A DNA stretch of 64,000 bases from Bacteroidota bacterium (GCA_050259955.1 JBLNBM010000003.1:83935-147934), one strand, 5' to 3'. Positions 1 through 58,018 are shown, numbered from the stretch's first letter. Made by a program: numbers and translations. Notes: a model not told the origin generated them from the letters alone.

Positions 1-1672
1 ACAGCTTGAGGGCTGCCGGCAGGTCTGCCTCGTCCTTGAAACCGTAATGGACGATGACCTGGGCGAAATTTTCGGCCAGGCGATGCACCTCGACGCGGTC
101 GATTTCCGGCACGTAGGGAACGTCGAAAACGCGCACGCTGAGGATGACGACCTGCTCGTGCAGCGCCTTGTAATGCTTGATGCTGTGCAGCATGGCGTGG
201 GGCACGGCTTCCGGGTCCGGCGTCATGAAAATGGCGGTGCCGGGAACGCGTCCGATGCCGCTGCCGGCGATGTCCTTGATGAAGGGCTTGAGCTGCAGCG
301 AATCGGCGGCCAGGCGCTGCTGCAGCAATTCGCGGCCACGTTTCCAGGTGGTGAGCAGGATGAACACGGCGAGGCCGAATGCCAGCGGGAACCAGCCGCC
401 ATCGGGAATCTTCACGGAATTGGCGAGGAAGAAGCCGAGGTCGATGCAGATGAAGGGCAGGGCGCCCAGCGTGGCGCGCAGCGGGCTCCAGTCCCACAGG
501 CGGATGGCGACGGCGATGGCCAGGATGTTGGTGATCAGCATCGTGCCAGTCACCGCGATGCCGTAGGCGGCGGCGAGGTTCGACGAGGTGCGGAAGCCGA
601 GGACCAGCGCGATGATGGCAATGAGCAGCAGCCAGTTGAGGGCCGGCAGGTAGATCTGGCCGATTTCCTGGTCCGAGGTGTGCTGCACTTCGAGGCGCGG
701 CGTGTAGCCGAGCTGGATGGCCTGCTGGGTGATCGAGAAGGCGCCGGAAATGACCGCCTGCGAAGCGATCACCGTGGCCACGGTGGCCAGGATGACGAGC
801 GGATAGAGCGCCCAGTCCGGCGCCAGCAGGTAGAAGGGGTTCTCGATGGTTGCCGGATCGGCCAGCAGCAGCGCGCCCTGGCCGAAGTAATTGATGACCA
901 GCGATGGCAGCACGTAGCCCAGCCAGGCGTACTGGATGGGGCGGGCGCCGAAGTGGCCCATGTCGGCGTAGAGCGCCTCGGCGCCGGTGATGCAGAGGAC
1001 GACGGCGCCCAGCGCGAAGAAACCGAGGCTGCCGTTGGCGATCAGGAAATGCCAGCCGTAGAGCGGGTTGACGGCCGCCAGCACGCCCGGGTGCCGAGCG
1101 ATGCCGACCAGGCCGAGGACGGCGAGCACGGCGAACCAGAGCACCATGATCGGCCCGAACAGGGCGCCGACGCTGGCCGTGCCGCGCCGCTGGAAGGCGA
1201 AAAGGCCGATCAGGATGGCCAGCGTGATGGCCAGGATGTAAGGGTTGAAGGCCGGCGTGATCAGCTCGAGACCTTCGACCGCCGAGAGCACCGAGATGGC
1301 CGGCGTGATGACGCCGTCGCCATAGAACAGCGCGGCCCCGAACAGGCCCAGGGTAATCAGCGCCTTCTGCTGCCACGAGGACGGATTGCCCTTGTGCAGC
1401 GCCAGCGTCATCAGGGCGATGATGCCGCCTTCGCCCTTGTTGTTGGCGCGCATGATGAAGGACACGTACTTCAGGGTGACGACGATGAGCAGCGACCACA
1501 GGAACAGCGACAGGATGCCGAGCACATTGTCGGGGGCGATCGGCACCGGGTGGTGGGCGCTGCCGAAAACTTCCTTGATCGAATAGAGCGGGCTGGTCCC
1601 GATGTCGCCATAGACGATGCCCAGTGCAGCCAGGGTCAGCGTCAGCAGACGTTTGTTGTTATTGACTTGCAT
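1..1672 (-). CDS. kup: Kup (KUP/HAK/KT) potassium transporter, 3' end beyond window edge
   Basis: Manual translation from ATG at 1672: [34 protein letters not shown]...MRANNKGEGGIIAL, with the Kup motifs GDIGTSPLY and GEGG. It runs off the window, so it is absent from the ORF track. Confidence 0.95.
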   Translation of the reverse strand, partial: MQVNNNKRLLTLTLAALGIVYGDIGTSPLYSIKEVFGSAHHPVPIAPDNVLGILSLFLWSLLIVVTLKYVSFIMRANNKGEGGIIALMTLALHKGNPSSWQQKALITLGLFGAALFYGDGVITPAISVLSAVEGLELITPAFNPYILAITLAILIGLFAFQRRGTASVGALFGPIMVLWFAVLAVLGLVGIARHPGVLAAVNPLYGWHFLIANGSLGFFALGAVVLCITGAEALYADMGHFGARPIQYAWLGYVLPSLVINYFGQGALLLADPATIENPFYLLAPDWALYPLVILATVATVIASQAVISGAFSITQQAIQLGYTPRLEVQHTSDQEIGQIYLPALNWLLLIAIIALVLGFRTSSNLAAAYGIAVTGTMLITNILAIAVAIRLWDWSPLRATLGALPFICIDLGFFLANSVKIPDGGWFPLAFGLAVFILLTTWKRGRELLQQRLAADSLQLKPFIKDIAGSGIGRVPGTAIFMTPDPEAVPHAMLHSIKHYKALHEQVVILSVRVFDVPYVPEIDRVEVHRLAENFAQVIVHYGFKDEADLPAALKL

Positions 1673-1682
1673 GGGGATTCCT

Positions 1683-2375
1683 TCAGGGCTGGAAGCGGTA
1701 ACCGACGCCGGTTTCGGTCAGGAAATGGCGGGGCTGGGTCGGGTCGATTTCCAGCTTCTGGCGCAGATGCCCGACATAGACGCGCAGGTAATGGCTGCTT
1801 TCGATGTAGGACGGGCCCCAGATTTCCCGCAGCAGGTTGCGCTGGGTCAGCACCTTGCCGGGATGGCCGAGCAGCGTCGCCAGCAGGCGGTATTCGATGG
1901 GCGTCAGGTGCACTTCCTGGCCGTTCCGGGTGACGACGCGGCGCGACAGGTCGACCCGGATCTCGCCGAATTCGATCAGCGGCGTCGCCGCTTCGCCGCT
2001 GCGGGCGCGCCGCCGCAACAGGGCGCGGACGCGGGCGCGCAATTCACCAACGCTGAACGGCTTGGTCAGGTAGTCGTCGGCACCGGCGTCGAGGGCATCG
2101 ATCTTGTCGTTTTCCTGGGTGCGGGCCGAGAGGATCAGCACCGGCACGTCGGACCAGCCGCGCAGGTCGCGGATCAGGTCGATGCCGTTGCCGTCGGGCA
2201 GGCCCAAGTCGAGGATGAGCAGGTCCGGCTTGCGCAGGCCGGCCTCGACCAGGCCCTGGGCGACGGTTTCCGCTTCGCAGACCGAGCAGCCTTCTTCCTC
2301 GACGGCGACGCGGACGAAGCGGCGGATCGGCTTTTCATCCTCGATGAGCAGGACTTTGGGGGCCGGTGCGTTCAT
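1683..2375 (-). CDS. kdpE: OmpR-family response regulator KdpE
   Basis: MNAPAPKVLLIEDEKPIRRF...LILDLGLPDGNG...ADDYLTKPF, then winged-helix HLTPIEYRLL...HYLRVYVGHLRQKLE...ETGVGYRF. It overlaps the kinase stop codon. Confidence 0.92.
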   Translation of the reverse strand: MNAPAPKVLLIEDEKPIRRFVRVAVEEEGCSVCEAETVAQGLVEAGLRKPDLLILDLGLPDGNGIDLIRDLRGWSDVPVLILSARTQENDKIDALDAGADDYLTKPFSVGELRARVRALLRRRARSGEAATPLIEFGEIRVDLSRRVVTRNGQEVHLTPIEYRLLATLLGHPGKVLTQRNLLREIWGPSYIESSHYLRVYVGHLRQKLEIDPTQPRHFLTETGVGYRFQP

Positions 2376-3910
2376 GCTCCCTCCTCCTCGACCACCGGCG
2401 GCACGCCGCAAGGCAGGGTGAAACGGACGCAGGCCCCGCCGTCCGCCGCCTGGTCGGCCCGGATACTGCCGCCGTGCGCTTCGACGATGGCACGGCAAAT
2501 GGCCAGGCCGAGGCCGGTGCCGGGCTGGCTCGGCGGCGTCGGGCCGCGCACGAACATCTCGAACAACGCATCCCGAGAGCCATCCGGAAAGCCCGGCCCA
2601 TGGTCGCAAACGGAGATTTCGACGCGTTCGTCCTGGCGTTGAGCAGTGATTTCTATGGTCGTTCCCGGCGGCGCGTACTTGGCGGCGTTTTCCAGCAGGT
2701 TGCAGAAAACGCGCTCGATCAGCACGGCGTCGAATTCGAGCAGCGGCAGGTCGGCCGGCAACGTGACGCGGACCGGGTGTTCGGCCAGCGCGGTGCCGAG
2801 CAGCTTGATGCTGGCGCCAATCACTTCTTCGAGCGGTTGCCATTCGCGGCGCAAGGTCACCTGGCCGGCATTGAGCCGGGCCATGTCGAGCAGGTTGCCG
2901 ACCAGGCCGGCCAGGCGGGCCGCCTGCTCGTGCATGGCCTGGGCAGTCTCCAGCGCCGGCTCGGGCAAGGGCGGCTTGATCAGGTTGAGCGAATCGGCCA
3001 GCCCGACCAGCGCCGTCAGCGGCGTGCGCAGGTCGTGCGACAGCGCCGACAGAATGGAGCTGCGCAGGCGTTCGGCCACCATGTTGAGTTGCGTGGCCTG
3101 GGCGACGTCGACGTAATGCAGGCGCTCGACGGCGATGGCCAGCAGCGAGGAGAGCGCTTCGAGCAGGGCCTGGTGCTCGGGCAGAAAGTCCGGCGGATTT
3201 TCCGGAAAGGCCACCGCCAGCACACCGCGTATCCGTTGCGAGGCACGCAACGGCAGGTAGAGCGAGGCGTAGCCGCCGCTGGCGAACTCGTTGTTGCGCA
3301 CGGTTTCCCCGCCTTTCATGGCAATGGCGGCCAGATGCGGTTCGACGCGAAAATGCGGTGGCGCCGGCATCCCTGTCGCCGCCTCGCTCTCGCCGGGAGG
3401 CAGCAGGATGGTCGAGTCGGCATTGAACTGCTCACGGACGAATAGGCCGGCAATCTCGACGACCTGCACCAGGCTCAGCGTTCCAGCCAGTTGCCTGGCC
3501 ACTTCGTACAGGGCCAGCGTGCGCTGTTCGCGGACCTGCGCCTCCTTCGCCTTGTGTTTCAGGCCGGCCGCCAGTTGGCCGGTGATCAAGGCGGTGGCCA
3601 GCATGACGGCGAAAGTGACGAGATACTGGATATTGGCGACGGCCAGCGAAAAGCGCGGCGGGACGAAGAAAATGTCGAAGAGCAGGACGCTCAGCACGGC
3701 GGCCAGCACGGCGGCGCCCCGACCGAGGCTGACGGCGAGCAGCAATACCGTGAGCAGAAAGAGCATCACGATATTGGCGAGATCGAGATAACCGAGCAGC
3801 GGGGTGGCCAGCAAGGTTGTCGCCGCGCAGGCGAGTACGGTCAGCAGGACCCGTTGCCGGGCGGAAAAGCGTTCCGGCGGATGAGCGGTCAGGGAGACTT
3901 CGTTGGGCAT
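2372..3910 (-). CDS. kdpD: KdpD-like sensor histidine kinase (4-TM DUF4118, GAF, HisKA, HATPase) lacking the N-terminal KdpD/Usp domains
   Basis: TM block LANIVMLFLL...FDIFFVPPRFSLAV...YLVTFAVML, H-box LSHDLRTPL, N-box NLLENAAKY, G2 GTGLGLAIC; about 512 aa. Confidence 0.88.
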   Translation of the reverse strand: MPNEVSLTAHPPERFSARQRVLLTVLACAATTLLATPLLGYLDLANIVMLFLLTVLLLAVSLGRGAAVLAAVLSVLLFDIFFVPPRFSLAVANIQYLVTFAVMLATALITGQLAAGLKHKAKEAQVREQRTLALYEVARQLAGTLSLVQVVEIAGLFVREQFNADSTILLPPGESEAATGMPAPPHFRVEPHLAAIAMKGGETVRNNEFASGGYASLYLPLRASQRIRGVLAVAFPENPPDFLPEHQALLEALSSLLAIAVERLHYVDVAQATQLNMVAERLRSSILSALSHDLRTPLTALVGLADSLNLIKPPLPEPALETAQAMHEQAARLAGLVGNLLDMARLNAGQVTLRREWQPLEEVIGASIKLLGTALAEHPVRVTLPADLPLLEFDAVLIERVFCNLLENAAKYAPPGTTIEITAQRQDERVEISVCDHGPGFPDGSRDALFEMFVRGPTPPSQPGTGLGLAICRAIVEAHGGSIRADQAADGGACVRFTLPCGVPPVVEEEGA

Positions 3911-3986
3911 GATCGGCGTCCGGCTGCTAGATGTATCCAGCCTAGTCGGCTGCATCTATAAATGCCGAGCATTCTGCTCCCCGCCG

Positions 3987-4003
3987 CGTAAAAAATTCGT
4001 AAA
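3987..4003 (-). promoter_or_regulatory. Putative KdpE operator (TTTACG-N5-TTTACG)
   Basis: Minus strand TTTACGAATTTTTTACG is a direct repeat with an 11-bp period, similar to the E. coli KdpE site TTTATACTTTTTTTACA. It lies 77 nt upstream of kdpD. Confidence 0.7.
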
Positions 4004-4024: not shown

Positions 4025-6259
4025 TCAGTACTCCTGCAACATGGTCAGTTCGGTATCGGCATTGCGCAGACGGATGGCCAGCGTGCGGGCGATGGCGTTG
4101 ATCAGGTTGAAGGCCAGTTTCTTGTGTTCCTCGGCCAGTTCGTAGAACTGCTTGCGCGACAGGACATAGACTTCGGTATCGGTCAGCGCGATGGCGTCGT
4201 CGCCGCGCGGCCGGGTGTCGAGGAAAGCCAGGCCGCCGAAGAAGTCGCCGCGGCCGAAACTGGCGATATGGCGGGTCCGGCCGCCGCCGAGCGGGGCGAA
4301 GATGCGCACCGCACCGCGCCGGATCCAGAAAATCTCGTCGCCTGGTGCGCCCAGGGCATAGATGGTGTCGCCCGCCCGGTAGCTGCGCAACTCCATCCGC
4401 GCTTCCAGGTCGAGCATGGTTTCGTCCTTGCGCAGCTTGAACAGTTCCATCTCGTGGATCTGGATCGGCGTCTCTTCCTCGACCGGAACCTTGTGCTCGC
4501 CAAGAATGCGGTTCTCCACCCATTCGATCGCCGCATCGAGTTCGGGGAAGACGCGGACGACGTCTTCATCGGCGGTCACGACACCGGTCTGTTCGAGGAA
4601 TTCACGCAGATTGCGGCCGTTCGGCAGCTTTTCCCGAACGCCCGACAGGAGCAGCATGGCGCCGCGTTCCTGCAGGGCGTCGCGGACATTGTGCAGGAGG
4701 TGGGCGGCCGTGACATCGACCGAAAGCACGTGTTTGAGATCGAGAAGGATGTAATTGCGTTTGCCGAGCTCCGGTTCGATTTCGCCGTACAGTTGCTGGG
4801 TGGTGCCGAAGAAGAGGCTGCCCTGCAGTTCGAAGATCACCGCCTGGTCGCCCTTCTGCTCGATGATGCGCATTTCCGCCTCGGGCCGGTACCAGGTCGA
4901 AGACATCTGGTTGGCGTAGATCTTGTGGCGGACGACCGAGCCGCCGATCTGCTCGCGCAGGAAAAGAATGATCGCCAGCGCGACACCGACCGCCGACGCG
5001 GCAATCAGGTCGATGGTCAGGGCAACGATGATGACGGCGAGGACGACGCCGAAATCGAAGACCGTGGCGCGGGATTCGATGAAGCGCAAGGGTTCGCGGT
5101 CGATCATCCGGATGCCGATGACGATCAGGATGCCGGCCAGCGCGGCGACCGGAATCCACGCCATGAAGGAGCCGAGGATCAGGGCGGCGACCAGCGCCAG
5201 CCCGCCTTCGAGGACGCCCGAGATGCGCGTTTGGGCGCCGCTGTTGAGGTTGACCAGGGTGGCGCCCATGGTGCCCGAGCCGGGGATGCCTCCGGCTGCC
5301 GCCGAGGCGATATTGGCGATGCCCTGGGCGACCAGTTCGCGGTTCGATTCGTGCTGGGTGCGCGTCAGCTGGTCGATGACGACACAGGTTTTCAGGGTGT
5401 CGATCGAGAGCAGGGCGGCCAGGGTCAGCGCGCTGCCGAGCAGTCCGCCGATCTGGCCGAGGCGCAGGTCGCCGATCTCGTTCCAGCGCCCGCTGATGGC
5501 GGTGAAGTAGCCGTCCTGCGCGGCGCCGAGGGCGCCGATGATCAGCGGGTTGCCGCTCACTTCCCACAGGCTCGGGTCTTGCAGGGCCAGGCCGAAATAG
5601 GTTAGGAGGCCGGCCAGGATGCCGAGGATGGTGCCGGGCACCTTGCTGGTGATTTTTGGGGCGACGAGGGCGACCAGCACGGTGGCAGCGCCGATGGCGA
5701 CGCCGCGCCAGTCCCAGGTCCACGGCGCAATCAGCGCTTCCCACCAGCGCGTCGCGGCGGCGGCACCGACGAATTTGGGGATCTGGCTGCCGATGATGAT
5801 CAGCCCGACGCCGGACAGATAGCCGCTGACTACCGGATAGGGGATGTACTTGATCAGCCGGCCGACGCCGATGAAGCCAAGGAGCAATTGCACGGTGCCG
5901 GCCAGTATGCCGAGCAGGATGAGCAGCAACACGACGGTGGCTGGCGTCACGCCCTGGTGGGTCAGTTCGATGGCGAAGGCCGAGAGCACCGCGGCGGCCG
6001 GGGCGCACGGGGCGCTGATCAGGCGGTCGGTGCCACCCAGCGTCGAGGCGACGAGGCCGATGACGCTGGCCCCGATAATCCCGGCCAGGGCGCCAAGGGC
6101 CGCGTAGTGCGGGGCAATCGCCGAATAGATGGTGACGCCGAAAGCGATTGAGGCGGGCAGCGCCACCAGCATGGCAGCGAGGGCGCCCCAGAAATCGCCC
6201 GGCACCTGTTGGCGCCCGAGCAGGCGCGGCAAACCGCTGGATGAGGATGTTTGCGTCAC
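4025..6259 (-). CDS. SulP/SLC26 anion transporter with STAS and C-terminal cyclic-nucleotide-binding domains
   Basis: GDFWGALAAMLVALPASIAFG, SNRELVAQGIANIAS, STAS GSLFFGT...DVTAAHLL, cNMP-like GDTIYALGAPGDEIFWIRRGAVRI...GDFFGGLAFLDTRPR. GTG start chosen for the AGGTGG RBS. Confidence 0.9.
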   Translation of the reverse strand: MTQTSSSSGLPRLLGRQQVPGDFWGALAAMLVALPASIAFGVTIYSAIAPHYAALGALAGIIGASVIGLVASTLGGTDRLISAPCAPAAAVLSAFAIELTHQGVTPATVVLLLILLGILAGTVQLLLGFIGVGRLIKYIPYPVVSGYLSGVGLIIIGSQIPKFVGAAAATRWWEALIAPWTWDWRGVAIGAATVLVALVAPKITSKVPGTILGILAGLLTYFGLALQDPSLWEVSGNPLIIGALGAAQDGYFTAISGRWNEIGDLRLGQIGGLLGSALTLAALLSIDTLKTCVVIDQLTRTQHESNRELVAQGIANIASAAAGGIPGSGTMGATLVNLNSGAQTRISGVLEGGLALVAALILGSFMAWIPVAALAGILIVIGIRMIDREPLRFIESRATVFDFGVVLAVIIVALTIDLIAASAVGVALAIILFLREQIGGSVVRHKIYANQMSSTWYRPEAEMRIIEQKGDQAVIFELQGSLFFGTTQQLYGEIEPELGKRNYILLDLKHVLSVDVTAAHLLHNVRDALQERGAMLLLSGVREKLPNGRNLREFLEQTGVVTADEDVVRVFPELDAAIEWVENRILGEHKVPVEEETPIQIHEMELFKLRKDETMLDLEARMELRSYRAGDTIYALGAPGDEIFWIRRGAVRIFAPLGGGRTRHIASFGRGDFFGGLAFLDTRPRGDDAIALTDTEVYVLSRKQFYELAEEHKKLAFNLINAIARTLAIRLRNADTELTMLQEY

Positions 6260-6451
6260 GATGCCACCTGTTTTGATCGTTGTCTGGGGGGCGCGCGTTG
6301 TCATGGGCGCAGATGCAACGGAAATCTTAAACCGCTTTGTCGCGGGTGGGGGCGTTTGCCCGTTCGTGGCGTCGAAAAGATCCGCCCGCCGCCGCTTCCC
6401 GACCGCCTGGCGGACTCGCATCGCAGGCGGCGCAGGACACCCTTTTCCGGT

Positions 6452-8378: not shown

Positions 8379-10340
8379 TCACCAGACGGCGTGCAGGAGG
8401 ATGTTGAACAGGCCGCCGATGAAGAAGGCGAAGGGAACGATCACGGCGACCATGCCGAGGGCGACTTTCGTGCCCTGTTCCTTGACCATCATCATCAGGC
8501 TGGCAAAGCAGGGGATGAACAGGGTGATGGTGATCATGCCGACCACGGCCTGGATCGGGGATAGCGAGTGCGACATGGCGAACAGCCCGGTCGCTCCGAA
8601 ATCGCGGCGCAGGAAACCCATCACGAAAGCCGCCGAGGCTTCCTTGGGCAGGCCCAGCCAGCCGGAGACCAGCGGCTCGCCGGCTTCGATGATGCCGGGC
8701 AGGGCGCCCGACTTGTCGAGGGCGTACATGATGAAGGTGCCGATCAGGAATAGCGGGATGACTTCGAGCAGGTACCACTTCAGCCGGCCGCCGGTCTTCT
8801 TCAGCACATTGGCAATGATCGGCAGGCGCATCGGCGGCAGTTCGGTGACCAGCGGGATGCGCCGGCCGGGAATCAGCCGGGAGGCGAGAAAGCCGGAAAG
8901 CAGCAGGATGCCGACCATGGCCAGTGCCCAGATCAGCACGGCGGTGAAGGAGAGGCCGCCGAGCATGCCGAGGACGACGCCGAGCTGCGCCGAGCAGGGA
9001 ATGGCCAGGGCGAGCAGGAAGATGGTGATCAGGCGTTCACGCGGGCTGTGCAGGATGCGCGTCGTCAGTGTCGCCATGGTGACGCAGCCGAGGCCGAGCA
9101 CCATGGGCAGCACGGCGCGGCCGTTCAAGCCGATCAGCGAAAACAGCCGGTTGGCGATCACGGTCAGGCGCGGCAGGTAGCCAGAATCCTCGAGCACGCC
9201 GAAGGCGAAGAAAAAGGTGGTGACGATGGGCAGGATCAGCGCCAGCGCGTAGGTCATGCCCATGGTCCACAAGCCGTACTGGCCGACCAGCAATTCGGCG
9301 AGCCAGGGGGCGGTGACTGCGGAATTGACCAAGTCGCTGAAGGCCGGGTTGAGGATTTCCTGGAAGAGATCTTTTTCGAGTAGGCCGACCAGCACCGTGG
9401 CGCCGAAGACGCCGACGAACTGGTAAACGACGTAGAGTACGCCGAGCAGGATGGGGACGCCCCAAACCGGATGCACGACATATTGCCCGAGGCGCTGCGC
9501 GAGCAGGGGACTGCTTCGGGCGGCGCGCGAGATGACGCTGGCCGCCAGCGCGTCGGCCGCTTCGGTGCGTTCGCGAGCGAGCAGCGTCGGCAGGTCGGCC
9601 TCGGCGCGCTCGCCGGCGGCGTGGCGCAAGGCGTCGAGTTGCGAAAAATTGTCGCCGGCGGCGCTGGCCAGCCAGTCCGCCACGACCGAGTCGCCGCCGA
9701 GGAAGAGAATGGCCAGGCCGCGCGCCGCGAGGCCGGGATGCGGCGCCAGGCGATTGATCGCGGCGCTCATGTCGGCGATGTCTTGTTCGAGATCGCCGTC
9801 GTAGCGGAGCAGGGCTTGCGGCCGCTGTGCCTCGGCCAGGCTGCCGGTCAGTTCGCCGACGCCCTCGCCGCCGGTCGCCACCGTGGCGAGCACCGGGATG
9901 CCGAGTTCTTCGGCGAGCGCCGGGATATCGACGGTGACGCCGCGCGCCGCCGCTTCGTCGTGCATGTTCAGGGCCAGCACCATGGGGACGCCGAGTTCGG
10001 CGAGCAGTGCGGTCAGCGTCAGGGTGCGGCGCAGGTTCTTGGCATCGCCGACCTGTACCAGGCAACGCGAGTTTTCATGCAGCAGGGCGCGCATCGTCGC
10101 CCGCTCGTCATCGCTGCGTGAAGGCAGCGCCAGGACGCCCGGCGTGTCGAGCAGCACTGCCTCGCGATCGAAGCGGGTGCTGGCCCGGGTGACTTCGACC
10201 GTGGTCCCGGGGTAATTGGAAACATTGACGTAGGCACCGGTCAGGCGGTGAAAGAGCACGGACTTGCCGACATTGGGATGGCCGACGAGCAGGATGGCGT
10301 TGGCGGTGGACAGGGAAGTATTCACGTGGGCAAGGGGCAT
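8379..10340 (-). CDS. feoB: Ferrous iron transporter FeoB
   Basis: G1 GHPNVGKS, G2 NYPGTTV, G3 DTPG, G4 NMHD, and membrane motifs LEDSGYLPR, LGLGC, IPCSAQ, LFIPC. The start codon is uncertain because the frame is open to 10493. Confidence 0.93.
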   Translation of the reverse strand: MPLAHVNTSLSTANAILLVGHPNVGKSVLFHRLTGAYVNVSNYPGTTVEVTRASTRFDREAVLLDTPGVLALPSRSDDERATMRALLHENSRCLVQVGDAKNLRRTLTLTALLAELGVPMVLALNMHDEAAARGVTVDIPALAEELGIPVLATVATGGEGVGELTGSLAEAQRPQALLRYDGDLEQDIADMSAAINRLAPHPGLAARGLAILFLGGDSVVADWLASAAGDNFSQLDALRHAAGERAEADLPTLLARERTEAADALAASVISRAARSSPLLAQRLGQYVVHPVWGVPILLGVLYVVYQFVGVFGATVLVGLLEKDLFQEILNPAFSDLVNSAVTAPWLAELLVGQYGLWTMGMTYALALILPIVTTFFFAFGVLEDSGYLPRLTVIANRLFSLIGLNGRAVLPMVLGLGCVTMATLTTRILHSPRERLITIFLLALAIPCSAQLGVVLGMLGGLSFTAVLIWALAMVGILLLSGFLASRLIPGRRIPLVTELPPMRLPIIANVLKKTGGRLKWYLLEVIPLFLIGTFIMYALDKSGALPGIIEAGEPLVSGWLGLPKEASAAFVMGFLRRDFGATGLFAMSHSLSPIQAVVGMITITLFIPCFASLMMMVKEQGTKVALGMVAVIVPFAFFIGGLFNILLHAVW

Positions 10341-10481
10341 TCTGGTAAAGGCGGCCGGCCGGGTATGTTCCCGGCTGACCGCCACTTTACGCCGGAATGC
10401 CGGACAGATGAAGAAAACCGGCGTTCGCAGCCGGTCTGGCCGGCAAATCGACGGCCTGGGGTGGCGCGAAAAAATCATGGT

Positions 10482-10522
10482 AATAACAATCATTCTTGTT
10501 TAGAATGCGAAACATTCTCATT
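10482..10522. promoter_or_regulatory. Two Fur-box-like sites in the feoB/tonB divergent promoter
   Basis: AATAACAATCATTCTTGTT (10482-10500, 14/18) and AATGCGAAACATTCTCATT (10504-10522, 16/18) against the AATGAGAAT-N-ATTCTCATT palindrome. Confidence 0.75.
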
Positions 10523-10541
10523 TGCGAATATTCCCCCCGAC

Positions 10542-11210
10542 ATGTCGTCCGCCGCTACCTCAAGCTCATTTGCTGGACTCCGTGCCTACCACGGCGCGCA
10601 CCGCTGGTCAGCCCGGGGAATTGCCGCAATCGTCGCCGCCCATATCGGCGTTCTTGCTGTGCTGGCCTCGCTCGACGCCTTGCCGCCCTTGCCGCCACCG
10701 CTCACCCTGATGGTTGAAGTGATCGCACCGACGCCGCCGGCCAGTCCGCCGAAGCCGCAGCCGACACCTGTCGAGCGCCGGCCGGCCGTCAAGCCGGTCG
10801 CCCGGCCGGCGATGCCGACCCCGCCGCCGTTGGCGATACCGGCCGCGGCAGCGAGTGCAGTGGCCGCTGTGTCGCCGGTGGCCAAGGAAACCACGCCGCC
10901 GGCCGCCGCGCCGGCGCCGGCCAGTGTGCAGTCGCCCCGCTTCGATGCCGACTACCTGAACAATCCGGCGCCGGCCTATCCCCCGATGGCCCGGCGCCTG
11001 GGCGAAGAAGGCAAGGTCGTGCTGCGCGTCTTCGTCGAACCCAGCGGCCGCCCCGGCCAGATCGAGGTCAAGACAGGGAGCGGTTCGCCGCGCCTCGATC
11101 AGGCCGCCCAGGATGCCGTCTGGCGCTGGAAATTCGTCGCCGCCCGGCGCGGCGACGAGACGCTCGGCGCCTGGGTGCTGGTTCCCATTGTTTTCAATCT
11201 GAAAGGCTGA
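10542..11210 (+). CDS. tonB: Energy transducer TonB
   Basis: N-terminal TM with His (AAHIGVL), Pro-rich linker, C-terminal PAYPPMARRLGEEGKVVLRVFV...SGSPRLDQAA...VPIVFNL. Confidence 0.92.
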   Translation: MSSAATSSSFAGLRAYHGAHRWSARGIAAIVAAHIGVLAVLASLDALPPLPPPLTLMVEVIAPTPPASPPKPQPTPVERRPAVKPVARPAMPTPPPLAIPAAAASAVAAVSPVAKETTPPAAAPAPASVQSPRFDADYLNNPAPAYPPMARRLGEEGKVVLRVFVEPSGRPGQIEVKTGSGSPRLDQAAQDAVWRWKFVAARRGDETLGAWVLVPIVFNLKG

Positions 11211-11211
11211 C

Positions 11212-12027
11212 ATGGAAAATACCCTGGGCTTCGCCCACTTTCTCGACCACGCCGACGGCATCGCCCGTTTCGTCCTCGGCCTGATGCTGCTCGCCTCGGT
11301 CGGCACCTGGTACCTGATCGTCACCAAGGGCATCCAGGTCTGGCGCATGCATCGCATCAGCGCGGCCTTTCTCGCCGACTTCTGGGAAGCGCCCAACCTC
11401 GAGGCGGTCGCCGCCCGCATCCGCGAAAGCGGCACCACCGAGCCCTTTTCGCACCTGATGCACCACGGCTTCACTGCCATCGAGCAGCACAATCGCCAGA
11501 AGACCGGCAGCGAAAGCAGCACCGCCAGCCTGATCCACACCGGCGCCCCGGACGACCTGCTGACCCGCGCTCTGAAGCGCGCCATCGACGAGGACCGCAG
11601 CCACCTCGAATTCGGCCAGACCTTCCTCGCCACCGTCGCTTCCGCCGCGCCTTTCGTCGGCCTCTTCGGCACCGTCTGGGGCATTTACCATGCGCTGATC
11701 GCCATCGGCCTCTCGGGGCAGAGCAGCCTCGACAAGGTCGCCGGCCCGGTCGGCGAAGCGCTGATCATGACCGGCATCGGGCTGGCCGTCGCCATTCCTG
11801 CCGCCATCGCCTATAACACCTTTGCCCGCGCCAACCGCAATACCCTGTCGCGGCTCAATTCCTTTGCCTACGACGTCTTCGCCTTCCTGGCGACCGGCAT
11901 CAAGACTTCGCCGATGCTGACCGACGCCCGCAGCACCAGCGAAAAGGTCATCGCCCTGGCCCGAGCCCAAGGGCTGGCCGCCACCGATGACAGCTCCCCG
12001 GCCCATCCCGGCCTGGCGCTGTGCTAA
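11212..12027 (+). CDS. exbB: ExbB (MotA/TolQ/ExbB proton channel)
   Basis: FLATVASAAPFVGLFGTVWGI...VAGPVGEALIMTGIGLAVAIPA. Confidence 0.92.
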   Translation: MENTLGFAHFLDHADGIARFVLGLMLLASVGTWYLIVTKGIQVWRMHRISAAFLADFWEAPNLEAVAARIRESGTTEPFSHLMHHGFTAIEQHNRQKTGSESSTASLIHTGAPDDLLTRALKRAIDEDRSHLEFGQTFLATVASAAPFVGLFGTVWGIYHALIAIGLSGQSSLDKVAGPVGEALIMTGIGLAVAIPAAIAYNTFARANRNTLSRLNSFAYDVFAFLATGIKTSPMLTDARSTSEKVIALARAQGLAATDDSSPAHPGLALC

Positions 12028-56158: not shown

Positions 56159-58018
56159 TCAGATGACCAGCTGGGTGCCCAGTTCGACGACGCGGTTGGT
56201 GGGAATCCCGAAGAAATCGCTGGCGCTGGTCGCATTTTTCGACATCACCGCGAACAGGCGGGCGCGCAGCGGCGTGAAGCGCCGCGCCATGGACGGCACG
56301 ATGGTTTCGCGCGACAGGTAGAAGGTGGTTTCCATCAGGTCGAAACGCTCGCCGAAATGCTTGCACTGCTCCAGGATGCCCGGCACATCCGGGCTTTCCA
56401 TGAAGCCGTAGCGGACGATCAGGCGCTTGAAGCCCTTCTTCAGGTTGTGCAGGTAGATGCGGTCGAGGTCATTGACGTAGGGTGTGTCGGTGGTCTGGAT
56501 GGTGAGCAGCACGATGCGCTCGTGGAGTACTTGGTTGTGCTTGAGGTTGTGCAGCAGCGCGGCCGGCACGCCTTCCTTGGAACTGGTCAGGAAGACGGCG
56601 GTACCCTCGATGCGATGGATGTCGTTGATCGAGGCCAGGAAGGCGTCCATCGGGATGCTTTGCTTGGTCATTTCGTCGGAAACCAGGCGGCGGCCGCGGC
56701 GCCAGGTGGTGAGCACGCTGAAGGAAATGATCCCCATGGCGATCGGAAACCAGCCGCCTTCGGGAATCTTGATGGCGTTGGCGGCGAAGAAGGCGAGGTC
56801 GACAGCGAGCATCAGGCCGGCGACGATGCCGATCACGATGCGGTTCCAGCGCCACATCAAGAGCATCACGAAGGCGATCAGCACGGTGTCGATCAGCATC
56901 GTGCCGGTCACCGCGATGCCGTAGGCGGCCGCCAGGTTGGATGAGTTCTTGAAACCGATGACCAGCGCGACAACGGCCAGGTAGAGCGTCCAGTTGGTGA
57001 AGGGGACGTAGATCTGGCCTTCTTCCATGCCGGAGGTATGGACGATCTGCATGCGCGGCAGCAGGCCCATCTGCACCGACTGACGGGCCACCGAAAAGGC
57101 GCCGGAGATCACCGCCTGCGAAGCGATCACCGTCGCTACCGTGGCCAGCCCGACCATCGGCACCAGCGCCCAGTCCGGTGCCAGGTGAAAGAAGGGGCTT
57201 TGGATCGCCGCCGGGTCGGCAAGGAGCAGCGCACCCTGGCCGAAATAATTGAGGACCAGGGCCGGCATCACGAAGCAGAACCAGGCCAGACGGATCGGGA
57301 AACGGCCGAAATGCCCCATGTCGGTATACAGCGCTTCGCCGCCGGTCACCGCCAGCACCACCGAACCCAGCGCCATGAAGGCGAGGGCGGGATGGGTGAC
57401 GATGAAGTTGCCGGCGTAGGAAGGGTAAAGCGCCGCGAGGACGGCCGGGTTGTCGATGATTTCAAGCAGGCCGAGGAGGCCGAGAATGGCGAACCAGATG
57501 ACCATCACCGGGCCGAAAAAGAGGCCGACGGTGCCGGTGCCGCGCTTCTGGATGGCGAAGAGGCAAGTCAGGATGAGCAGGGTCAGCGGGATGACGTAAG
57601 GCGTCAGCGTCGGCGTGATGATCTCGACGCCCTCGACGGCGGAGAGCACCGAAATGGCCGGCGTGATCATGCTGTCGCCATAGAATAGTGCCGCCGCGAA
57701 AATGCCGAGCAGGGTGATGACCCAGGTCAGGCGCGGATTCCTGGCGCGCTCGGTGACTAGCGCCAGCAAGGCCAGCGAGCCGCCTTCGCCGCGATTGTCG
57801 GCGCGCATGATGATGGCGACGTACTTGGTCGAGACCAGCGCCATGATCGACCAGAAAACCATGGACAGGATGCCGAGGATGTTTTCGGGAGTGACCGGGA
57901 TGGGGTGGTGGCCATTGAAGATTTCCTTCAGGGCATAGAGCGGACTGGTCCCGATGTCACCAAAAACCACCCCGATGGCGGCGACGGTGAGCGTCGGCAA
58001 AGCTTGCCGTGAATGCAT
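56159..58018 (-). CDS. kup: Kup potassium transporter (second paralog)
   Basis: [55 protein letters not shown]. Confidence 0.95.

Follow-up and report, generated by a model that had tools for sequence, protein, structure and literature searches.

Kup is classically viewed as a constitutive K+ carrier, and the KdpD/KdpE pair as dedicated to the Kdp pump; we know of no KdpE control of kup in Escherichia coli. The N-terminal domain of KdpD is a serine kinase that acts on KdpB and its C-terminal part a histidine kinase that acts on KdpE, and the sites suggested to sense K+ in the E. coli protein lie in the membrane block and the GAF domain (PMC11018627). The E. coli KdpE site has been defined experimentally as TTTATA-N5-TTTACA, and R193, R200 and T215 are the DNA-contact residues of the regulator (PMC3264566). 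The survey of KdpD variants in Silberberg et al. (2024) was restricted to species whose Kdp pump is annotated, and stressed proteins in which the serine kinase is kept and the histidine kinase lost (PMC11018627). As at the locus described here, Vibrio cholerae encodes a short, 497-aa KdpD homologue beside a KdpE homologue (VC_A0531/VC_A0532), although the report on this pair names no target genes, Kup linkage or operator (PMC3937525). The main target in a Caulobacter KdpE ChIP-seq preprint is the kdp promoter, and the passages of it that we consulted do not describe KdpE control of kup. Full-text searches of the literature found no description of such wiring.

A short kdpD, kdpE and kup in tight succession

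We analysed a 64,000-nt stretch of DNA (the window) from an Azonexus/Dechloromonas-like bacterium, in which kdpD, kdpE and kup all lie on the minus strand. A sequence-only reading had described these genes as a tight operon in which kdpD and kdpE overlap by 4 nt and kdpE and kup are 10 nt apart, and both junctions are exactly of that size. The first gene is a short kdpD (2372..3910), which encodes 512 aa from the ATG at 3910 in a frame that is open to 3955. It overlaps kdpE (1683..2375), which encodes a 230-aa response regulator of the OmpR/PhoB family, and the third gene, kup (1..1672), follows after the 10-nt gap with an AAGGA ribosome-binding site just 5′ of its ATG. Codons 1-557 of kup fall within the window; the full-length gene (G000:C3:83729-85606, 625 aa) continues 206 nt past the window edge.

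The regulator passes the cut-off of the KdpE equivalog NF007820 (358.8 bits vs. 325), and among PDB entries it matches KdpE 4KNY best, at 325.9 bits, the highest-scoring other regulator reaching 156.9. Identity to E. coli KdpE is 64%. The phospho-acceptor Asp of the receiver is conserved (D56, equivalent to E. coli D52), as are the three DNA-contact residues, with R198, R205 and T220 corresponding to R193, R200 and T215. The Kup product matches PF02705 (625.9 bits) and PF22776 (91.4 bits) in a Pfam scan, with the K_trans membrane domain and the C-terminal cytoplasmic domain both present, and it scores above the cut-off of TIGR00794 (573.9 vs. 539.6); the partial protein reaches 703.9 bits on NF008015. 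It belongs to the same transporter family as E. coli Kup (TrkD) and groups in a clade of Kup orthologues whose genes, in relatives, are linked to kdpDE. Unlike the monocistronic E. coli kup, the operon gene is one of three kup paralogues in its genome, and the only one of them to stand behind a putative KdpE box.

The sensor corresponds to the C-terminal half of KdpD

Among NCBIfam models, KdpD was by far the best match of the kinase (440 bits vs. 134 for the next), yet the score on NF007793, at 440.5 bits, is below the cut-off of 1123 and comes from profile positions 401-891 only. Likewise, the protein aligns to residues 409-889 only of E. coli KdpD, at 40% identity, and has no equivalent of residues ~1-400. 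Its DUF4118 domain, which forms the four-helix membrane block, and its GAF, HisKA and HATPase_c domains all score above the Pfam cut-offs, and the histidine box SHDLRTPLT is kept with its phospho-acceptor His. The same Pfam scan detected neither PF02702, the N-terminal P-loop serine-kinase domain of KdpD, nor Usp in the short protein. A split KdpD, with its N-terminal part encoded elsewhere, was ruled out by the lack of any PF02702 match genome-wide in an assembly that is 93.6% complete.

The ATG at 3955 was dropped as the kdpD start because the -10 element and transcription start predicted below fall 3′ of it. A GGAA-N7-ATG arrangement conserved in 70 aligned orthologous promoters places the start at 3910 instead, and this ATG is the likely start codon. 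The sequence-only reading of the kinase as kdpD holds for the C-terminal half of that protein; it had made no mention of the N-terminal truncation. The modular serine-kinase/histidine-kinase logic of the variants of Silberberg et al. (2024; PMC11018627) is recognizable in the short KdpD as a mirror image, in which the histidine kinase is kept, the serine kinase is lost and the pump is absent.

Kdp pump genes are not found in the genome

The window had been reported to contain no kdpFABC, and this result extends to the whole genome. We found no match to KdpA or KdpC in the 3.64-Mb assembly, where, at 93.6% completeness, absence falls short of proof, and every kdpB match in it was below the cut-off (best 186 bits vs. 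528). The best of these is a heavy-metal P-type ATPase with an HMA domain, encoded near the window edge. A kdpABC cluster just past that edge, which would have placed the pump genes next to the operon, was ruled out: the neighbour there is a convergent gene, and the nearby P-type ATPase is the one that carries the HMA domain. The KdpD N-terminal domain and TrkH were also without a match in this 93.6% complete genome. In the same genus, a closed genome (G159) has the short KdpD and is without KdpA. Compared with the E. coli kdpFABC system, the cargo at this locus is a proton-coupled carrier, Kup, rather than a P-type pump, and the regulator genes come first in the operon rather than last.

A kdp-type promoter precedes the operon

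Upstream of kdpD is a direct repeat with an 11-bp period, TTTACG AATTT TTTACG (3987..4003, minus strand), that had been picked out earlier as a candidate KdpE box. Its half-sites and period match those of the E. coli site TTTATA-N5-TTTACA, and the conservation of the contact residues leads to the prediction that E. coli KdpE would recognise it. The box is the sole match in the window even when one mismatch is allowed, with 0.07 expected from shuffles, and the strict TTTACG-N5-TTTACG occurs once in the 3.64-Mb genome. As scored with a position weight matrix, it reaches 35.0 bits. The next-best genomic site has 16.6 bits, less than the lowest training site (20), and no further KdpE targets were found, the other two kup genes included.

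A predicted -10 hexamer, TAGGCT (3939..3944, minus strand), lies 42 nt downstream of the box, and its position puts the predicted transcription start near 3932. Of 70 orthologous promoters, 57 have TAnnnT at exactly this distance past the box, and E. coli PkdpF has its -10, TACCCT, at the same offset, such that both systems share an operator of the form TTTAYR-N5-TTTACR followed at 42 nt by a TAnnCT -10. With respect to the predicted start, the locus has the layout of an E. coli-type operator, namely two T-rich 6-bp direct repeats with an 11-bp period at about -72 to -50. Closer to the promoter is a degenerate second repeat, TGCTCG GCATT TATAGA (3955..3971, minus strand), that ends 10 nt before the -10 and may also serve as a KdpE site. 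At its offset E. coli has TTTGCG-N5-TTTGCA, while relatives have a conserved TTTACA half-site at this position and, in two loci (L068, L069), a full second box. The canonical kdpFABC promoters of relatives show the same layout as the kdpD-kdpE-kup promoter. Being colinear with the kdpFABC promoter in E. coli and in related Betaproteobacteria, it most probably derives from such a promoter.

A further hexamer, CAGAAT (3971..3976, minus strand), is found 10 nt past the box. NAnnAT occupies offset 10 in 63 of the 70 promoters, and CAGnTT is found at this position in E. coli and in the canonical kdp promoters, so CAGAAT is a candidate for an alternative -10 or for a conserved promoter feature. Because two -10-like hexamers, at offsets 10 and 42, are conserved past the box, the transcription start near 3932 and the geometry of activation are assigned only tentatively; a pho-box-like geometry would place the start near 3964. 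If CAGAAT were the true -10, the repeat would cover the -35 region, and a site so placed could in principle allow phosphorylated KdpE to repress, shutting the operon off. We consider this very improbable despite the conservation of the hexamer: the related regulator PhoB classically activates from pho boxes set at this 10-nt geometry, and the E. coli and canonical kdp promoters bear CAGnTT there and are nevertheless activated from the -10 at 42 nt.

Short KdpD and KdpE are linked to potassium importers across relatives

The linkage was surveyed in 80 related loci from Rhodocyclales, Methylophilaceae, Thiobacillaceae, Gallionellaceae and others. A Kup gene follows the short kdpD-kdpE in the same orientation in 75 of them, down to 48-50% Kup identity. 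Four loci have TrkH in that position, with TrkA next in three. Upstream sequence is long enough to be informative in 79 loci, and in every one of these a KdpE-type box precedes the short kdpD, as a strict match in 69 and a variant in 10. Cultivable carriers of the operon include Dechloromonas denitrificans ATCC BAA-841, Azonexus sp. IMCC34839, Novimethylophilus kurashikiensis La2-4 and Methylobacillus sp. MM3. A SulP-STAS-cNMP gene upstream of the operon was dropped as a member of the system, being upstream in one of the 80 loci and downstream, reversed, in one more.

The box might serve solely for autoregulation of the sensor pair, with a merely adjacent kup expressed constitutively from its own promoter in or after kdpE, as would suit the constitutive character ascribed to E. 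coli Kup and the presence of a separate ribosome-binding site and a gap before the gene. A gap of 10 nt, however, is too small for a promoter outside kdpE, and a consensus scan found no sigma-70 promoter within the operon, although an internal promoter of divergent sequence may escape such a scan. The two terminator-like matches in the operon are both weak and no more than in shuffles, and so give no argument against read-through. Adjacency in a constant orientation across 75 of 80 loci also argues against this explanation, and the exchange of Kup for TrkH in four loci would be difficult to account for if the importer were not functionally coupled to the pair; moreover, KdpE would regulate itself alone, as the genome holds no other strong KdpE site. 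Autoregulation without control of kup is consequently unlikely, and the earlier proposal that KdpE controls the Kup operon gains support from the constant box, the E. coli-like spacing, the conserved contact residues and the synteny.

The distribution of KdpD forms was examined in a family sample. Full-length KdpD occurred only where KdpA was present (43 of 43 genomes), which fits the N-terminal domain being a serine kinase directed at KdpB (PMC11018627). The short KdpD was found mostly without KdpA (54 of 71 genomes), and the remaining 17 of the 71 had KdpA as well. The suggestion that the Kup system replaces or supplements the Kdp ATPase was apt on both counts, no pump genes being found in the present genome and KdpA accompanying the short KdpD in those 17. 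The ~510-aa short KdpDs are homologues of the KdpD C-terminal half that would regulate Kup or Trk, and not broken kdpD genes.

A likely self-activating potassium-uptake operon

Together, these data make it likely that kdpD, kdpE and kup constitute a three-gene, self-activating potassium-uptake operon, in which the sensor, regulator and promoter of the Kdp system are joined to Kup and no pump genes are found. By analogy with E. coli, the short KdpD would retain the K+-sensing membrane and GAF part and the histidine-kinase part, and it has lost the N-terminal half that in E. coli is the serine kinase shutting off the Kdp pump. Under K+ shortage this membrane-bound kinase would phosphorylate KdpE; a dimer of phosphorylated KdpE would then occupy TTTACG-N5-TTTACG, whose centre lies ~63 bp before the predicted start of transcription, and activate a promoter that has no good -35 element. 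Since transcription would run through kdpD, kdpE and kup, the sensor, the regulator and one dedicated Kup paralogue would rise together. Upon the return of K+, the phosphatase activity of KdpD would turn the operon off.

The short sensor pair and the kdp-type promoter in front of it make low potassium the probable inducer of this Kup. An alternative is that the kinase and regulator are a paralogous KdpDE pair responding to another stimulus, such as osmolarity, ionic strength, Na+ or NH4+, and setting Kup for osmotic or pH homeostasis rather than for K+ scavenging. The KdpD/Usp half missing here is, in other species, where signals from ATP, UspC and c-di-AMP are integrated, and the kup-linked KdpE is a lineage apart from the pump-linked KdpE of the same family (SH-aLRT support 80). 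On the other hand, the membrane block and GAF domain that are retained house the sites proposed to sense K+ in E. coli KdpD (PMC11018627), the cargo is a K+ importer in Kup and TrkH loci alike (75 and 4 of 80), and the promoter is of the kdp type. A stimulus other than K+ is hence improbable, and we favour low potassium as the signal.

More tentatively, and with somewhat less than even confidence, we propose that the short KdpD/KdpE and its kdp-type promoter are a portable potassium-starvation switch that evolution has set before non-homologous K+ importers (two separate Kup lineages and TrkH), and that the Kup it drives is a specialised scavenging isoform replacing the Kdp pump in pump-less bacteria. 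If so, the split between long and short KdpD would be a natural experiment, indicating that the N-terminal half serves pump control only and is dispensable for K+ sensing; our results are consistent with the 2024 report that this domain exists for the control of KdpB (PMC11018627). Carriers would offer a simple system for K+ sensing by a KdpD without the serine-kinase half, and low K+ is predicted to induce one of their Kup paralogues. The operon is found widely among Betaproteobacteria of environmental importance, its carriers including Dechloromonas/Azonexus, relatives of Accumulibacter, methylotrophs, and iron and sulfur oxidisers.

A truncated KdpD, KdpE and Kup are encoded together behind a KdpE-type repeat

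The assembly (3.64 Mb, 62.9% G+C, 32 contigs, 93.6% complete) has Azonexus/Dechloromonas (Rhodocyclales, Betaproteobacteria) as its nearest public relatives. On the minus strand, a sensor kinase frame (2372–3955) with DUF4118, GAF, HisKA and HATPase_c domains is followed by kdpE (1683–2375) and by kup, which runs leftwards from 1672 and whose whole gene lies at 83729–85606 of the contig (625 aa); the 4-nt overlap and 10-nt gap at the junctions are as the sequence-only reading described them, and a convergent gene sits downstream of kup. KdpD is the best NCBIfam match of the kinase (440.5 bits; cut-off 1123), covering profile positions 401–891 only. BLASTP gave 40% identity to E. coli KdpD across residues 409–889 and no alignment to its N-terminal half, and we refer to this form as short KdpD. 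KdpE exceeds the equivalog cut-off (358.8 bits against 325) and shares 64% identity with its E. coli counterpart; among solved structures its top match is KdpE (4KNY, 325.9 bits), with the next different regulator at 156.9.

The E. coli KdpE site, TTTATA-N5-TTTACA with an AT-rich spacer, was defined by footprinting and EMSA, and R193, R200 and T215 contact the DNA (PMC3264566). The KdpE studied here keeps these three residues, the neighbouring recognition helix and the phospho-acceptor Asp. Upstream of kdpD, in intergenic sequence, lies the direct repeat TTTACG AATTT TTTACG (4003–3987, coding strand, minus), hereafter the box. It is the sole match in the 64-kb window with one mismatch allowed (shuffles expect 0.07), and the genome as a whole contains a single copy of the strict pattern. 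Scored with a position weight matrix built from 61 distinct orthologous sites, the weakest of which reaches 20 bits, the box obtains 35.0 bits and the second-best genomic position 16.6; the operon therefore appears to be KdpE's one strong target in this genome. Both the operon and the repeat noticed in the earlier reading are real. Directly upstream of the operon (4025–6421, minus) is the gene for a SulP-family anion transporter of 798 aa whose STAS domain is joined to a cyclic-nucleotide-binding domain at the C-terminus; this adjacency is not kept in relatives.

Potassium-uptake genes in the genome

The earlier reading saw no kdpFABC, and the genome-wide search for kdpABC that it proposed found none: KdpA, KdpC, the KdpD N-terminal domain and TrkH had no match in the 93.6% complete assembly, and kdpB only sub-threshold P-type ATPases, an incomplete assembly leaving absence unproven. 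Nor does kdpABC lie just past the window edge, where the gene beyond kup is convergent. Some 10 kb off there is a P-type ATPase, which carries a heavy-metal-associated domain and is not KdpB. The single KdpD-like gene is accompanied by three Kup paralogues of 53–63% mutual identity, the second at 56159–58018 (minus, 53% identical to the operon Kup) and the third on another contig (C28:20041–21936, minus, 63%). A genome scan with the matrix placed no KdpE box at either of these two. Because neither TrkH nor Kdp was found, the organism appears to take up K+ through Kup-family carriers only. In another genome of the genus, which is closed, KdpA is likewise missing and KdpD short.

The operon and its box are conserved across relatives

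The synteny survey suggested earlier was run with one genome per species and returned 492 short-KdpD relatives, the best 80 loci of which were examined. In 75 of these 80, kdpE and then kup directly follow short kdpD in the same orientation, with linked Kup identity dropping to 48–50%. One locus stops at a contig edge, and in the remaining four (L074, L084, L086 and L060) the third gene encodes TrkH. The TrkH carriers are Azonexus hydrophilus, A. fungiphilus, Thauera phenolivorans and one Azonexus metagenome-assembled genome, and in the three named species trkA comes next (about 10140–13150 in L074, L084 and L086; the L060 region is 10285–11739). Thus each informative locus among the best 80 pairs kdpD-kdpE with a K+ importer. 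Carriers include Azonexaceae, Zoogloeaceae, Sterolibacteriaceae, Methylophilaceae, Sulfuricellaceae, Thiobacillaceae, Gallionellaceae and one Steroidobacteraceae, among others.

Enough upstream sequence was present in 79 loci, and all 79 carry the box: 69 as strict TTTAYN-N5-TTTAYN and 10 as a variant in the same place (e.g. TATACA-N5-TTTACG), nine of the latter followed by a CAGAAT-type hexamer (NAnnAT). Together with kup as third gene in 75 of 80 loci, this supports the original interpretation of a KdpDE system rewired to Kup, with binding and K+ response presumed. The feature is a rewiring of known parts rather than a new mechanism, and constitutes a well-supported, testable regulon prediction that contradicts what textbooks assign to Kup and KdpDE. 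A full-text literature search covering few subscription journals found neither KdpE control of kup nor a short-kdpD-kdpE-kup operon; the nearest published case is VC_A0531 of Vibrio cholerae, a 497-aa KdpD homologue whose gene adjoins that of a KdpE homologue and whose targets were left undetermined (PMC3937525).

The short-kdpD promoter is colinear with pump promoters

Upstream of E. coli K-12 kdpF, exactly 42 nt separate the box from the TACCCT after it, which puts the half-sites at −72 to −50, as published. The window promoter is alike, with box, 42 nt and TAGGCT (3944–3939). In a gap-free, box-anchored alignment of 70 short-kdpD promoters, TAnnnT occurs 42 nt after the box in 57 (41 nt in two more) and NAnnAT (CAGAAT) at offset 10 in 63; also kept are a TTTACA half-site at offsets 26–31 and GGAA-N7-ATG, with the ATG at offsets 76–78. 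Given the E. coli precedent, we favour the offset-42 hexamer over that at offset 10 as the likely −10 element. Offset 76 corresponds to 3910, so the kdpD start codon is most probably this ATG (512-aa protein); 3955 is disfavoured, lying upstream of the predicted transcription start.

For comparison, canonical kdpFABCDE operons were taken from eight genomes within the family. Six promoters have a first box, 41–43 nt and a −10 element, several with an additional degenerate repeat ending 10 nt ahead of the −10. The other two (L096 and L098) carry a second repeat 10 nt ahead of the −10, the first box being further upstream in L098 and not located in L096. The short-kdpD promoter is thus colinear with pump promoters, and could have arisen simply, through duplication or deletion of a kdpFABCDE operon that joined it to the 3′ half of kdpD. 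E. coli itself (L092:8300–8480, minus) carries a further direct repeat, TTTGCG AAATC TTTGCA, between the KdpE site and the −10, ending 10 nt ahead of TACCCT; its position is taken by the TTTACA half-site in Rhodocyclales promoters and by a full second box in loci L068 and L069.

The operon is best read as a positive-feedback system inducible by K+ limitation, with the K+ signal, KdpE binding, direction of regulation and co-transcription inferred from E. coli. At low K+, short KdpD would phosphorylate KdpE, which would then occupy the box and turn on transcription of all three genes, kdpD, kdpE and kup; at high K+, KdpD phosphatase activity would reverse this. No consensus sigma-70 promoter was found in the operon, and its only two terminator-like matches, one on the opposite strand, are weak and fewer than in shuffles, which as weak evidence would be consistent with activator dependence and read-through.

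Sensor length follows the pump across the family

Among 201 sampled genomes of the family, in which KdpD classes were set by open-frame length, 46 have KdpA. These include all 43 genomes with a KdpD-like frame of at least 850 aa; of the 71 with a short one, 17 have KdpA and 54 do not. Resting on frame lengths and on kin that are not independent, these numbers are descriptive only. The pattern is nonetheless clean, the full-length sensor going with the pump and the short sensor not. On these counts the module, proposed earlier to replace or supplement Kdp, seems to do both, supplementing the pump in some genomes and standing in for it in others. The KdpD N-terminal domain was reported in 2024 to be a serine kinase phosphorylating KdpB S162, in work whose survey took in only species in which the pump is annotated (PMC11018627), and the split between sensor forms fits such a KdpB-directed role.

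KdpE and Kup phylogenies

A KdpE tree of 46 rows, with E. coli as the root, puts 37 of 38 short-KdpD-linked KdpE on one side and the seven pump-linked betaproteobacterial KdpE on the other, with moderate support (SH-aLRT 80 on both branches). The 59-row Kup tree places the genus's operon Kup in a 31-row clade, 30 members of which are kdpE-linked, and each of the genus's other two paralogues in an unlinked clade of its own. Elsewhere in this tree lies another linked lineage (Thiobacillaceae, Gallionellaceae, Sulfuricellaceae and others). These two linked lineages and the TrkH cases suggest that a sensor-regulator-promoter unit was joined to different importers.

Two further arrangements were observed. 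In an uncultured betaproteobacterium (L083:8001–14380), a second, convergent short kdpD-kdpE pair lies just past kup, so that one transporter is flanked by two sensor-regulator pairs. Two Sterolibacterium-like genomes carry a second Kup paralogue (61% identity) convergent just downstream of the operon kup (L065:12893–14755 and L071:12931–14103).
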